Assembly (NCBI GenBank): GCA_964567575.1
Contig: CAZMMZ010000009.1
Span: 1 to 49,384 of the forward strand
Reading direction: 5' to 3'
DNA length: 49,384 nt
Source: Candidatus Undinarchaeota archaeon
GTDB taxonomy: Archaea; Undinarchaeota; Undinarchaeia; Undinarchaeales; UBA543
The number at the start of each line of letters is the position of its first letter. The stretch's first letter is position 1. This document shows, piece by piece, positions 18,923 through 23,388 of this stretch. A program made the position numbers and the translations under genes. The notes beneath the pieces were generated by a model. The model saw nothing but the letters and a program-made list of their open reading frames with translations. It was not told the origin of the DNA and ran no database searches.

Positions 18923-20158
18923 ATGAAATATGCAAACCAAAGTCATTACATTGATTTAAAATTTAACCCAGATCCAGACAATTATCTGGTTGCTGATTTT
19001 TACATGGATTGCGAGCAGAGCAAAATGTGCGCTGCAGGTCTTGCTGCAGAATCCTCAACAGGCACATGGACAAAACTTCATCACCATCAGAAATCTTTCA
19101 AAGATCTTGGTGCAAAAGTTTTCAAACTGCGTGGCAATCAAGTCAAAGTTGCATATCCTCTTGATCTTTTCGAAGCTGGTAGTGTTCCACAATTCCTCAG
19201 CGACGTTGCAGGAAATATTTTCGGAATGAAGATTGTGAAAAATCTTCGTCTTAATGATTTTACAATTCCAAAACAATATGCACAAGGTTTCAAAGGCCCT
19301 GCCTTTGGAATGGAAGGCGTTCGAAAGATTGTTGGCACTACTAAAACCAGAAGGCCGCACACTGGTACAATTGTCAAACCCAAAGTTGGTTTGAATCCAA
19401 AACAAACTGCGCAAGTTGCGTACGAAGCATGGGCAGGTGGATTGGATTTTGTAAAAGATGATGAGAATTTAACAGATCAAAAATTCTGTCCATTTGAAAC
19501 TCGTGTTCTCAAAGTTTTAGAAGCTCGTGATAAAGCACAAAGTGAAACTGGTGAGAAAAAAGTCTATGCTCCAAATATCACTGGAGTTGATATGGTGAAA
19601 CGTGCTCAATTTGTTAAAGATCATGGTGGAAAATGCATAATGATTGATATTCTCACAGTTGGTTACGGAGCATTGCAAACAATTCGCAATATGGATTGGG
19701 GGATGTTCATCCACGCGCATAGAGCAATGCACGCTGCAATAACCAGAAACAAGAAGCACGGTATCTCTATGCTGGCTCTTGCAAAACTCGCACGTCTTTC
19801 TGGAGTTGATCAATTGCATATGGGAACAGTCGTTGGGAAAATGGAAGGTCCTGCAAAAGAAATTCAAGAAATAAACACAGCACTTAATGAACCACTTCAC
19901 GGAATCAAACCAGTTTTCTCTGTTTGTTCAGGTGGAATTCATCCAGGACACATTCCTGCATTAATGCGATTATTCGGAAAAGATATTGTTGTACAAGCTG
20001 GTGGGGGAGTTCACGGACATCCAGGTGGTACGCGCGTTGGTGGAACCGCTATGCGTCAAGCAGTTGATGCAATAATGAAAAAGAAAACCCTTAAAGAATA
20101 TGCAAAGAACCACATTGAACTTGATACAGCAATTGGACAGTGGGGAGTGGTTAGATAA
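18923..20158 (+). CDS. rbcL: RuBisCO large subunit, form III-type
   Basis: AAESSTGTW, TIVKPKVG, GGLDFVKDDEN (carbamylated Lys motif), HAHRAMH, GKMEG, SGG and QAGGGVHGHP are all intact; 411 aa. Confidence 0.95.
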   Translation: MKYANQSHYIDLKFNPDPDNYLVADFYMDCEQSKMCAAGLAAESSTGTWTKLHHHQKSFKDLGAKVFKLRGNQVKVAYPLDLFEAGSVPQFLSDVAGNIFGMKIVKNLRLNDFTIPKQYAQGFKGPAFGMEGVRKIVGTTKTRRPHTGTIVKPKVGLNPKQTAQVAYEAWAGGLDFVKDDENLTDQKFCPFETRVLKVLEARDKAQSETGEKKVYAPNITGVDMVKRAQFVKDHGGKCIMIDILTVGYGALQTIRNMDWGMFIHAHRAMHAAITRNKKHGISMLALAKLARLSGVDQLHMGTVVGKMEGPAKEIQEINTALNEPLHGIKPVFSVCSGGIHPGHIPALMRLFGKDIVVQAGGGVHGHPGGTRVGGTAMRQAVDAIMKKKTLKEYAKNHIELDTAIGQWGVVR

Positions 20159-20192: not shown

Positions 20193-20507
20193 ATGGCAAC
20201 AAAAGGTTCTAAAAGAGCTCCAATCAAGATCGTTGTACTTGACGTTCTAAAGCCGCACAATCCAAGCATTGTTGAATTCGGCAAGCTTGTGTGCAAACAC
20301 CCATCTGTTCTTAGTGTGAATAACAGTGTATATGCTGTTGACACAAAAACAGAATCTATAAAAATGACTTTGGAAGGAAGAGACATAAACTTTGAGGCAG
20401 TTAAGAAAATCATAACTGAAAATGGAGCTGCTATTCATAGTGTTGATCGCGTTGTTCTTGGTAAAGAAGATATCATTTCACTTGGTGAAGGTATATCTAA
20501 CAAGTAG
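20193..20507 (+). CDS. DUF211 family protein
   Basis: VVLDVLKPH.P, GAAIHSVDRVV.G motifs. Confidence 0.85.
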   Translation: MATKGSKRAPIKIVVLDVLKPHNPSIVEFGKLVCKHPSVLSVNNSVYAVDTKTESIKMTLEGRDINFEAVKKIITENGAAIHSVDRVVLGKEDIISLGEGISNK

Positions 20508-20513
20508 GTAAAA

Positions 20514-21086
20514 ATGGGATTTGTAAAACGTATTCTTGGGAATGAAATAGTCCGTCGTTATGTTATAATGAATTCATTTGACGGAGCCTTAACAATGCTC
20601 GGTATAATTCTTGCTAATTTCTTTGCAGGAACTAATAATGTACAACTTGTTATTCTCCCAAGCGTCGGTGCTGCAATTGCATTGTGTATTTCTGGAATCT
20701 GGGGTGCGTATACTGCAGAATTCGCTGAAGTGAAACGATCAATCAAAGAATTAGAGAATCATATGCTGCGTAAAATGCATAATACTCATTATGCGCAGAA
20801 AGAACGAATTATGGCCTATACAATATCTGTTGTGAACGGTCTTGTACCTCTGTTCGTTGCCTTCATACTTATAACTCCGTTCTTTTTTGTGAAATTTAAT
20901 ATTCTCACAATAAAACTCGGGTATTATACCTCACTTACAGCTGTAAGTGTGGCTCTTTTTGGTTTCGGAATGTTTGCAGGCAAGACTGCAAAGGAGAATC
21001 TATACATACATGGTGTGAAAATGCTGTTTGCAGGTATTATTATTGGTGTTATTTTCTACTTATTAACACTTGTTGGAGTAATTTAA
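20514..21086 (+). CDS. VIT1/CCC1-like membrane protein (TIGR00267 type)
   Basis: RRYVIMNSFDG.LT.LG, SGIWGAY.AE.AE; usual partner of DUF211. Confidence 0.85.
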   Translation: MGFVKRILGNEIVRRYVIMNSFDGALTMLGIILANFFAGTNNVQLVILPSVGAAIALCISGIWGAYTAEFAEVKRSIKELENHMLRKMHNTHYAQKERIMAYTISVVNGLVPLFVAFILITPFFFVKFNILTIKLGYYTSLTAVSVALFGFGMFAGKTAKENLYIHGVKMLFAGIIIGVIFYLLTLVGVI

Positions 21087-21147: not shown

Positions 21148-21996
21148 ATGAAACATATTATTCGTAAAATTAGAGGATTATTTAGCGGTCTCTTTGGTGG
21201 AAAGAGACAAATCAAGCTTGGAATATACGGTGAACCAAACACTGGTAAAACAACACTTGCTAATAAAATATCTATGGACTGGCTCGGAGAGCCTGTTGGT
21301 ATCGCTTCAGAAATGCCACATACTACACGTATGATCCAGAAGAAAGAAAAAGTTGAGGTTAAAGTCGGTAACAAAACTCTTTCAATGAATCTTCTTGACA
21401 TGCCTGGTCTGGCAACGCAAGTCGATTATAAACAATTTTTGAAATTTAAACGTCTTCCTTCTGAACCGTCAACTTCAATTTCTTTTTCTGATATTTCTCT
21501 TGCTGCTCTTAAAAAAATAGCAAAAAGCAAACAACTTTCTTACACAACCAAAACAAAGAAGCCAGCGCTTCTTAAAAAAGTCAAAGTAGTTGTTAAAGAA
21601 TCTGAACTCTCTGGACTTGCAAAGGAACTTAAATTTAAAGTCAAAAAGAAAAAGAAATCCAAGAGCAAATATTCAAAAAATGAAGCGAAAACTCTTGCTG
21701 AAGAAGCCACTAAAGCAATTATCGAAGCAATAAAATGGCTTGATAATGTTGACAATGTTATAGTCATGATGGATTCTACAAAAGATCCGTTAACTCAAGT
21801 TAACATCATGCTTTTGGGAAACCTGGAAGCAAAGGGCATTCCTGTAGTAATTTGCGCCAATAAAACTGACCTGCCTACTGCGAATCCATCTGGAATTCGA
21901 GATGCATTTCCACAGCATCCCGTTGTAGAAATTTCAGCTCTAAAAGGGATAAATCTTGATGAGCTCTACAACACTATTGCAAAGCAGGCGGTGTAA
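21148..21996 (+). CDS. arvA: Small GTPase ArvA/OapA with internal insertion
   Basis: N-terminal amphipathic helix, GEPNTGKTT, PHTTR, DMPG, EAIKWLD, NKTD, SAL; followed by DUF2073 and Zn-ribbon genes. Confidence 0.85.
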   Translation: MKHIIRKIRGLFSGLFGGKRQIKLGIYGEPNTGKTTLANKISMDWLGEPVGIASEMPHTTRMIQKKEKVEVKVGNKTLSMNLLDMPGLATQVDYKQFLKFKRLPSEPSTSISFSDISLAALKKIAKSKQLSYTTKTKKPALLKKVKVVVKESELSGLAKELKFKVKKKKKSKSKYSKNEAKTLAEEATKAIIEAIKWLDNVDNVIVMMDSTKDPLTQVNIMLLGNLEAKGIPVVICANKTDLPTANPSGIRDAFPQHPVVEISALKGINLDELYNTIAKQAV

Positions 21997-21998
21997 AA

Positions 21999-22427
21999 AT
22001 GGCAGCAAAAAAATCAAAAAAACAAATTAAAACAAAGACAAGGAAATCAAGAAGTGGCGGACTTGATATGGATTTCATATCTATGAAGACGCTTTCATCT
22101 TTGTCTGTAGAAAAAAGGATAAACACTATTCTTAGTAAAGTAAAAGAAGGTCACATGGTTGTTCTTGACCAAGCTCTTGATGCTGATGAAGAAGCAAAAC
22201 TCGTAACAGCAACAATGAAAGGAATTAAAGGTGAATTCACTGGTATTGAATTCTGCACTCTCCCTTCAACAAATAATACACTTTACAATTTTTTTGCTAA
22301 AATCGCGGAGATAGTATTAAAGAAAGATGTTGCAAAGCCCGGTCTTACTTTCGTCGGTCCTTCATATCTTATTGAAAAAATAAAAAAAGATCCTAATGCG
22401 TTCTACGTATCAACTAAGGGGAAATAG
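21999..22427 (+). CDS. arvB: DUF2073 family protein (ArvB/OapB)
   Basis: IL..VKEG..VVL...L..DEEAKLV..TM, F.GIE, GLTFVGP. Confidence 0.85.
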   Translation: MAAKKSKKQIKTKTRKSRSGGLDMDFISMKTLSSLSVEKRINTILSKVKEGHMVVLDQALDADEEAKLVTATMKGIKGEFTGIEFCTLPSTNNTLYNFFAKIAEIVLKKDVAKPGLTFVGPSYLIEKIKKDPNAFYVSTKGK

Positions 22428-22429
22428 TA

Positions 22430-22891
22430 ATGCACCAGTGTTTAAAATGTAAAAAATATTTTGAGGATGATGAAGTACCTATCTTAGATGGTTGTGAATG
22501 TGGAGCTCGTATCTTTTTGTTTGTTAAACAACCCGAGGATGTGAATCGTGCAGAGAAAATGTATTCTCAAATCGAATCAAAAATTAAAGAACTTGAACAA
22601 GAACAAGTTGAAATTGAGAAGGAAGAAGGACAGCAAGAACTTACAACACCGCCAGAAGAGTATGAAAAAGAAAAGCCAAACAAATACACTGCTGCGCGTA
22701 CTGCTGTTAAAACAGAAAAATCAAAATTCGGAATCGAAACAATTCGTGTAAATGATATGGGTGTATACGAAATAAACATTGACGCTCTTATGAAGGGAAA
22801 ACCTGTAGTAGTATTGTCAAAAGGCGGATCTTACATTATAAGTTTGCCGTCCGTATTTGGAAAAGAAAGCGGGGTTATGATAACAGAGTAA
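22430..22891 (+). CDS. arvC: Zn-ribbon protein (ArvC/OapC)
   Basis: HQCLKC..F......IL.GC.ECG...F; IETIRV...G.YEIN...L, G.Y.I.L. Confidence 0.85.
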   Translation: MHQCLKCKKYFEDDEVPILDGCECGARIFLFVKQPEDVNRAEKMYSQIESKIKELEQEQVEIEKEEGQQELTTPPEEYEKEKPNKYTAARTAVKTEKSKFGIETIRVNDMGVYEINIDALMKGKPVVVLSKGGSYIISLPSVFGKESGVMITE

Positions 22892-23388
22892 TGGAATTAG
22901 TTGTACCAACAAAAAAAGAGTTTATACTGCTTTTAGAAAAATTTGAAAAAGATGGTAAACATTTACATAATGGTTTATGGACTGAGAAAGTTGTTTTAAT
23001 TGATCAACATTCTACGTTTATGCGACTTCAGCATACGCCACTTAGTGAAAGCACACATCTCCTTCTTGAAAGTCAAATAAGTTATCCAATGGTTCTAACT
23101 GCGGAGACTCCAAAAGATTATTTAACTCTTGATATTAAAATCACAAAGACGAGAGACGGTTTTTTTGTTATTGGTTTTGAACCAACACCGATGCGGCCGG
23201 TCAAAGATTTTCTTATACGTGAATATGAAGTACATCTACAAACTTTTGTTGATAATATTCGAAAAGTTCTTGGTGCCAAAGTTCCTGTGAAGAAAAAACG
23301 AAAGAAATCAAGCACAAAGAAGAAAGTAGTAAAGAAAAAAGTGTTTGAGAAAAAAGCTAAAGTTGGTTCTTACAGAAAAAGGTATTGA
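22891..23388 (+). CDS. Hypothetical protein with Lys-rich C-terminus
   Basis: TAATG coupling to arvC; 165 aa. Confidence 0.6.
   Translation: MELVVPTKKEFILLLEKFEKDGKHLHNGLWTEKVVLIDQHSTFMRLQHTPLSESTHLLLESQISYPMVLTAETPKDYLTLDIKITKTRDGFFVIGFEPTPMRPVKDFLIREYEVHLQTFVDNIRKVLGAKVPVKKKRKKSSTKKKVVKKKVFEKKAKVGSYRKRY

Follow-up and report, generated by a model that had tools for sequence, protein, structure and literature searches.

The arv locus

The DNA analysed here, referred to as the window, is a 49,384-nucleotide contig (CAZMMZ010000009.1) of a Candidatus Undinarchaeota (DPANN) archaeon, whose assembly of 0.75 Mb is 82% complete and consists of 18 contigs. The open reading frame (ORF) at positions 21148 to 21996 codes for a small GTPase in which an in-frame, lysine-rich insert of 75 amino acids separates switch II from helix α2. 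The gene heads an arvA/oapA–oapB–oapC operon; the next two ORFs match OapB and OapC, so the arrangement is arvA/oapA–arvB–arvC, as in Haloferax volcanii. The features of the locus are listed below with strand in brackets; the confidence of AlphaFold2 models is given as the predicted local distance difference test (pLDDT).

21148–21996 (+), arvA/oapA-type small GTPase gene with the insert (282-amino-acid ORF; Pfam MMR_HSR1, E = 1.5e-11; GTP_EFTU, E = 2.2e-8)
21151–21192 (+), predicted N-terminal amphipathic helix, amino acids 2–15 (AlphaFold2, low pLDDT of ~51; I, L and F alternate with K and R)
21397–21447 (+), G3 motif (DMPG) and switch II segment upstream of the insert (motif position; alignment with short homologues)
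21448–21483 (+), Ser/Pro-rich N-terminal linker of the insert, amino acids 101–112 (pLDDT ~59; poorly conserved in A2, the alignment of 14 inserts)
21484–21591 (+), divergent SAP-like helix-loop-helix, amino acids 113–148, with predicted helices at 118–127 and 138–148 (AlphaFold2; Pfam SAP matches of the orthologues; profile A2)
21598–21630 (+), conserved third helix of the insert, amino acids 151–161 (AlphaFold2, pLDDT ~86–91; L54 and L61 of the insert near-invariant)
21631–21672 (+), poly-Lys tail and linker into helix α2, amino acids 162–175 (sequence; pLDDT ~72)
21676–21741 (+), helix α2, amino acids 177–198, where homology to short ArvA resumes (alignment and AlphaFold2)
21999–22427 (+), arvB/oapB (Pfam OapB, PF09846, E = 6.6e-19)
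22430–22891 (+), arvC/oapC, Zn-ribbon (Pfam OapC, PF09845, E = 7.8e-23)
22891–23388 (+), conserved fourth operon gene, 165 amino acids (43–50% identity to the genes directly 3′ of oapC in the loci of two relatives, L058 and L059)

The GTPase motifs of the encoded protein are intact: G1 (GEPNTGKT, amino acids 28–35), G3 (DMPG, 84–87), G4 (NKTD, 238–241) and G5 (SAL, 263–265). Its Pfam GTPase matches are interrupted by the insert and cover amino acids 24–94 and 193–279. The two halves of the protein are 50–67% identical to ~207-amino-acid DPANN homologues that are unnamed or labelled "Era-like", and a Foldseek comparison of the whole-protein model matched the G domains of Era, Arf, Ras and Rab with E values of 1e-8 to 1e-6. 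The order arvA–oapB was found in all six loci of relatives. oapC follows in five of them; the contig of the sixth, L062, stops before it, its last ORF being unannotated and 50 amino acids long. ArvA has been described with an N-terminal amphipathic helix, and DPANN homologues have been described as well (PMC10927574). By homology and gene order the window GTPase is assigned as the ArvA/OapA of this Undinarchaeota archaeon.

Boundaries and fold of the insert

The initial annotation of this DNA had placed a basic insertion of about 75 residues after switch II of ArvA, at 21448–21669, and had proposed alignment with ArvA/OapA homologues as the means of delimiting it. A MAFFT alignment with nine short (~207 amino acids) homologues from Altiarchaeota, Micrarchaeota and Aenigmarchaeota confirmed the insertion and set its limits at amino acids 101–175 (nucleotides 21448–21672), the interval first given being one codon short. 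In the short homologues, the '..DY..FL.' segment after G3 leads directly into the helix 'GLS..EA..RAKEAT.G.IEAIKWL'. About 75 additional residues occupy this site in the window protein as well as in 44 homologues that are 265–295 amino acids long. The insert begins 13 residues past G3, where switch II ends, and precedes the long helix 177–198. It contains 22 Lys and one Arg versus five Asp or Glu residues, a net charge of +18; such a charge or higher was found in 0.35% of the 75-amino-acid segments drawn from the ORFs of the window genome.

An AlphaFold2 model built with a 45-sequence alignment showed three helices in the insert (amino acids 118–127, 138–148 and 151–161) at pLDDT 87–92, which exceeds the values for parts of the G domain. 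A model that failed to fold would have spoken against a domain, but the insert is predicted to be ordered, and a model of the insert alone reproduced the same three helices. The first two are separated by a 10-residue loop. Confidence is lower for the flanking linkers, at ~59 for amino acids 101–112 and ~72 for 162–176.

Pfam searches of the 45 full-length orthologues yielded SAP matches in 25 (E ≤ 0.01, best 3.8e-9), Rho_N matches in seven (best 6.2e-5) and HeH matches in four (best 1.4e-4). When 14 inserts were searched in isolation, SAP was found in eight (best 1.8e-9) and Rho_N in five. In three genomes from GTDB (G014–G016), the SAP match inside arvA scored 34.6–36.4 bits, with a curated cut-off of 23.9. 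The alignment of the 14 inserts (A2) was then used as a profile against all PDB sequences, and seven of the top nine matches were of SAP or SAP-like type. They included Hcc-1 (E = 0.0019), MANF (C-domain, twice), MKL1, Tho1 (twice) and a rice putative DNA-binding protein (2rno), and hnRNPUL1/E1B-AP5 (1zrj) was matched as well. One of the nine was ribosomal protein S20. An exhaustive structure search with VIA gave a list enriched in SAP, FAN1-SAP, SF3B2, PIAS1, the Rho N-domain, the emerin LEM domain and the reverse-gyrase latch; 1zrj was matched with Z 4.4 and a root-mean-square deviation (rmsd) of 2.6 Å over 46 residues. Conservation of residues L121, A125 and K138 reaches at least 90% in the alignment of 45 homologues (A1) and is complete in A2, where L54 and L61 of the insert (amino acids 154 and 161) are nearly invariant.

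The copy in the window is itself divergent. Compared with the SAP-scoring orthologues, its inter-helix loop is longer by two residues and the canonical loop Gly is lost. Several results speak against a SAP identity. The window insert had no SAP, Rho_N or HeH match in Pfam, whichever of three differently cut segments was searched (E up to 10), and a profile of the window subclade alone (A3) retrieved no SAP structure from PDB. Foldseek with the insert model gave no PDB match below E = 1, and all VIA Z scores were below 8; values of 3–6.4 are weak, in a range that a common helical arrangement could explain. Weak structural evidence is expected, because the motif has only ~40 residues. A comparison by hhalign of A3 with a profile of the SAP-scoring subclade (A4) gave a probability of 98.5% (E = 3e-15) over 67 columns at 43% identity. 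Since it has no direct Pfam match of its own, the window copy is assigned only through its orthologues; by the hidden Markov model criterion alone it would not be called a SAP domain. It is best classified as a divergent SAP-like (HeH-clan) module orthologous to the inserts that bona fide match Pfam SAP.

For the insert family as a whole, we consider it very probable that it is a SAP-type (HeH-clan) module, a helix, extended loop and helix followed by a third helix. SAP is the best-fitting Pfam family, ahead of Rho_N and HeH, and the resemblance to HeH/LEM is at the clan level only. The SAP/HeH-like residue pattern cited in the initial annotation is present in the insert, and similarity to HeH was indeed found, as orthologues match SAP, Rho_N and HeH. 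The resemblance to Rho-N/HeH modules suggested there thus stands for the HeH clan and for the insert family, but the closest family turned out to be SAP and the window copy lacks a direct match.

Distribution, origin and related fusions

Close relatives of the window genome carry the labels Undinarchaeota, Undinarchaeales or Naiadarchaeales. Among 17 species-level genomes of Undinarchaeota, 15 have an ArvA match, and in 13 of these the protein is full length and carries the insert. One of the remaining two (in G003) is N-terminally incomplete (query residues 34–279) yet covers the insert, and the other (in G007) is ended by a contig boundary. Absence from close relatives, which would have pointed to an artefact, was therefore not seen: the insert is in all of them. 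Insert-bearing ArvA proteins are spread over at least seven families of Undinarchaeota, and the insert was found in ~45 metagenomic homologues. When 1.84 billion representative proteins were searched, a single 50%-identity cluster aligned through the insert.

Other long ArvA homologues had no insert at the junction of switch II and α2; their extra length consists of N-terminal additions or P-loop inteins. Inteins near the P-loop were seen in several homologues of 334–679 amino acids (P0123, P0128, P0130, P0135 and P0136, all with Intein_splicing matches, and P0130 also with LAGLIDADG). Their presence indicates strong conservation of that site.

A maximum-likelihood tree was calculated from the core alone, with the insert columns removed. 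All insert-bearing proteins fell on one side of a branch with 98/95 support and hence form one clade. Nested separately within it are two proteins, P0046 (231 amino acids) and P0047 (228 amino acids), in which the three helices are missing and the Lys-rich tail is all that is left of the insert. The simplest reading of the tree would be one gain of the insert followed by two independent deletions of the helices. Both proteins are encoded on contigs shorter than 2 kb, and an assembly error is possible.

Ratios of nonsynonymous to synonymous substitution rates (dN/dS, Nei-Gojobori) were 0.07–0.24 for the insert versus 0.034–0.044 for the core, the insert changing 3–6 times faster; in the sole unsaturated pair the values were 0.20 and 0.034. 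The insert is under purifying selection, being clearly constrained though faster than the core. No direct repeat flanks it in the window. Only A-rich low-complexity repeats surround it, and there is thus no sign of recent recombination or of insertion of a mobile element. Because the insert is in frame, present across the phylum and under purifying selection, it is a lineage trait of Undinarchaeota and neither a chance feature nor an assembly artefact.

A search for further copies of the module with profile A2 revealed no paralogue in the window genome besides the ArvA insert itself, and no SAP match was found across that genome at E ≤ 0.01. In some other Undinarchaeota, RNA polymerase subunit H (RpoH; Rpb5_C) has an N-terminal SAP domain (L060:3435-3842 and L057:3874-4278). 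By hhalign this domain is homologous to the ArvA insert (95.9%, E = 6e-9). Profile comparison is the sole link, as BLASTP of the window insert against the SAP domain of SAP-RpoH gave no alignment. RpoH of the window genome (ORF L063:1309-1716, Rpb5_C at ~1501-1710) has no SAP domain and starts instead with a short Lys-rich N-terminus. Five other Undinarchaeota genomes (G001, G002, G004, G005 and G006) encode proteins other than ArvA, 137–407 amino acids long, with sub-threshold to threshold SAP matches, which suggests that SAP modules have undergone a modest spread specific to this lineage.

A separate group of ArvA-like GTPases has a helix-hairpin-helix (HhH) region of ~55 amino acids at the N-terminus (P0147, P0153, P0163 and P0137). 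HHH_5 matched all four proteins (best 2.8e-6), and a profile of the region matched the HhH domains of L32e, RadA/Rad51, Pol IV and Hef in PDB. Only two more relatives emerged when the N-terminal HhH region of P0163 was used in a word-index search. The fusion is best seen as an independent joining of an ArvA-like GTPase to a nucleic-acid-binding motif. The genes are:

L065:581-1420, HhH-fused ArvA-like gene
L066:1012-1845, HhH-fused ArvA-like gene
L067:1246-2097, HhH-fused ArvA-like gene
L068:85-906, HhH-fused ArvA-like gene

No OapB or OapC gene lies directly downstream in L065–L067, and L068 is too short to tell.

The fourth ORF of the window operon (22891–23388) matched no family in Pfam or NCBIfam, and its product has an additional poly-Lys C-terminal tail of ~35 amino acids in the window copy. 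It may be a lineage-specific fourth member of the arv operon. Shortly 5′ of the operon lies a further ORF:

18923–20158 (+), form III-type RuBisCO large subunit

Between it and arvA are genes for a DUF211 protein (20193-20507) and a VIT1-like membrane protein (20514-21086). RuBisCO (Pfam RuBisCO_large) also adjoins arvA in L058 and L059, and the neighbourhood is thus conserved. Adjacency to a replication origin, which the name "origin-associated protein" implies, was considered and set aside: the only orc1/cdc6 gene detected (Cdc6_C match) is on contig C1 and the arv operon is on C9, which, in an assembly of 18 contigs at 82% completeness, is weak evidence.

Possible function and comparison with known systems

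SAP, Rho_N and HeH domains classically bind nucleic acid, and in Ras-like GTPases switch II changes position according to the nucleotide bound. Taken as a whole, the explanation that follows, from the origin of the SAP insert to nucleotide-gated binding of nucleic acid by ArvA, seems to us somewhat probable. Between switch II and α2, an ancestor of Undinarchaeota would have gained a SAP-type mini-domain, extended by a third helix and a tail of Lys residues. The SAP module and the tail would bind nucleic acid, either double-stranded DNA or structured RNA, without sequence specificity. Because a folded basic module sits on flexible linkers at the end of switch II, its exposure or orientation may follow the GTP/GDP state as it hangs from the switch II/α2 junction. 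The ArvABC membrane-remodelling machine would thereby be coupled to DNA or RNA, so that nucleic acid could be loaded into budding vesicles or the budding site tethered to the nucleoid.

ArvA of H. volcanii (HVO_3014) drives the formation of extracellular vesicles that carry RNA (PMC10927574). Coupling to vesicle cargo is a natural hypothesis since ArvA-dependent vesicles of that species contain RNA; tethering to the chromosome is equally possible. From the charge of the insert, its domain class and the convergent HhH fusion we infer that it may bind nucleic acid and so select cargo or tether the chromosome. Binding is proposed because of the net charge of +18, the SAP class, the SAP-RpoH and HhH fusions and the precedent of the reverse-gyrase latch described below. 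The retention of a SAP-type insert across the phylum likewise suggests, and does not prove, binding of DNA or RNA by ArvA.

These arguments have to be set against other observations. Lys-rich tails are not rare in the AT-rich window genome, where 36 of 729 ORFs have one, and P0046 and P0047 have kept such a tail and none of the helices. The HhH-fused GTPases, with no adjacent OapB/OapC, may be functionally different paralogues. Domains of the SAP and LEM classes can also mediate protein-protein contacts, and the MANF-BiP and emerin-BAF complexes are in the hit lists of the insert. Vesicle formation by ArvA has been demonstrated genetically for H. volcanii, and for ArvA of Undinarchaeota it is putative.

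The insert could instead serve as a protein docking site that depends on the nucleotide state and binds no nucleic acid, its partner being ArvB, ArvC, the fourth operon protein, a chaperone or a chromatin protein. Switch II is the classical effector-binding surface of small GTPases and it is there that the insert is found; a lineage-specific fourth operon gene exists; and the hit lists hold protein complexes of SAP/LEM-class domains (the MANF/CDNF SAP with the BiP ATPase domain, the emerin LEM with BAF, the p53-binding domain of PIAS1, and SLX4-MUS81). We regard docking as rather unlikely, however, as a net charge of +18 with a poly-Lys tail is more typical of binding to nucleic acid or anionic surfaces, the same module is joined to RNA polymerase subunit H, and the HhH region gained independently by ArvA-like GTPases is another pointer to nucleic acid. 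A further possibility is that the insert is mainly an electrostatic anchor, its polybasic helices and tail binding anionic archaeal lipids beside the N-terminal amphipathic helix so as to reinforce or regulate the hold of the GTPase on the membrane, comparable with the polybasic regions of K-Ras and of the Rho family. The charge with its Lys run and the retention of the Lys tail in the helix-less P0046 and P0047 are compatible with this, ArvA has been proposed to act on membranes through its amphipathic helix (PMC10927574), and the histone-type domain of the GTPase regulator SOS binds lipids (PMC11390915). A plain polybasic anchor, however, would have no need of a three-helix fold that is conserved, confidently predicted, under purifying selection and marked by SAP-specific hydrophobic and Lys residues, and the ~200-amino-acid ArvA proteins of all other lineages function without an insert, which makes a pure anchor improbable in our view, a little more so than docking.

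Least probable of all is a tolerated, lineage-specific loop expansion that rides along as a neutral passenger domain. The insert does change 3–6 times faster than the core, two relatives have apparently deleted most of it, and in the window subclade both the canonical SAP Gly and the Pfam match are gone. Nevertheless it has been kept in at least seven families across the phylum, its dN/dS of 0.07–0.24 is far below 1, its hydrophobic core positions and the Lys of helix 2 are invariant, and its fold is predicted with confidence. Given this constraint and conservation, a purely neutral insert is unlikely, and we would assign it very little weight.

The explanation by nucleotide-gated nucleic-acid binding can be carried further, at the price of becoming speculative. 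ArvA of Undinarchaeota might be a GTP-gated nucleic-acid adaptor, in which DNA or RNA is captured by the SAP module and Lys tail on switch II only in a particular nucleotide state and then passed into budding vesicles or cell-cell bridges; in this full form we think the proposal doubtful. If true, genome-reduced Undinarchaeota symbionts and their hosts would have a protein route dedicated to the exchange of nucleic acid, and the HhH fusion would mean that the ArvA family in general handles nucleic acid, a role that had so far escaped notice. In Euryarchaeota, ArvA alone has been proven genetically to drive the formation of extracellular vesicles, and a SAP-type module at its nucleotide switch would offer a testable handle on how cargo meets the budding machinery. 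SAP domains are rarely seen in Archaea, as are domain insertions into small GTPases at the switch II/α2 junction, and the insert is a case of both. The paper on ArvA (PMC10927574) does not mention an insertion, a SAP domain or Undinarchaeota, and full-text searches of the literature on SAP domains in Undinarchaeota and on follow-ups of ArvA found no description of this architecture.

Like ArvA/OapA of H. volcanii, the window protein is a small P-loop GTPase with a predicted N-terminal amphipathic helix and motifs G1–G5, and its gene is likewise the first of an operon, before OapB (DUF2073) and OapC (DUF2072, Zn-ribbon). The difference is the 75-amino-acid SAP-like, Lys-rich insert, which ~207-amino-acid homologues do not have. 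The insert shares with SAP domains (PF02037; Hcc-1/SARNP, 2do1; Tho1, 1h1j; hnRNPUL1, 1zrj; PIAS1, 1v66) the conserved L..L..(I/L)A pattern and the Lys that opens helix 2, and it is predicted to have their ~35-residue arrangement of helix, extended loop and helix. In contrast to these domains, it is embedded in a GTPase domain rather than terminal and has an extra third helix and a poly-Lys tail. Rho_N (PF07498) and HeH/LEM (PF12949) belong to the same clan and have the same helix-loop-helix geometry; in the VIA search residues 4–48 of Rho (1a62) were matched with Z 3.6 and rmsd 2.4 Å, and the emerin LEM domain with Z 3.2–3.5. Rho_N and HeH nevertheless had fewer orthologue matches (seven and four, versus 25 for SAP) and weaker best E values. 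Unlike the domain of Rho, the insert is internal to a GTPase and is not followed by an OB-fold RNA-binding domain, and unlike LEM it has no inner-nuclear-membrane context.

ArvA-type GTPases have been fused repeatedly to motifs of nucleic-acid-binding type, the SAP-like insert and HhH, and comparable designs occur elsewhere. In reverse gyrase, a P-loop domain houses the latch, an inserted Rho-N-like module that modulates nucleotide and DNA binding (PMC3061058). This latch (H3 in the RecA-like H2) was the top VIA match of the insert (4ddt_A residues 393–469, Z 6.4, 64 aligned residues), with a poor rmsd of 5.7 Å. Both are small helical modules within a P-loop NTPase domain, but no sequence similarity was detected and the latch resides in an SF2 helicase rather than in a TRAFAC GTPase. 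We regard the likeness as one of design, an analogy and not homology. The Rab-GTPase histones of Lokiarchaeota (PMC11390915) also join an archaeal small GTPase of membrane-trafficking type to a fold of DNA-binding type. There a histone fold is C-terminal to a Rab-like GTPase, whereas in Undinarchaeota a SAP-like module is internal to ArvA, and the lineages and domains of the two are unrelated.

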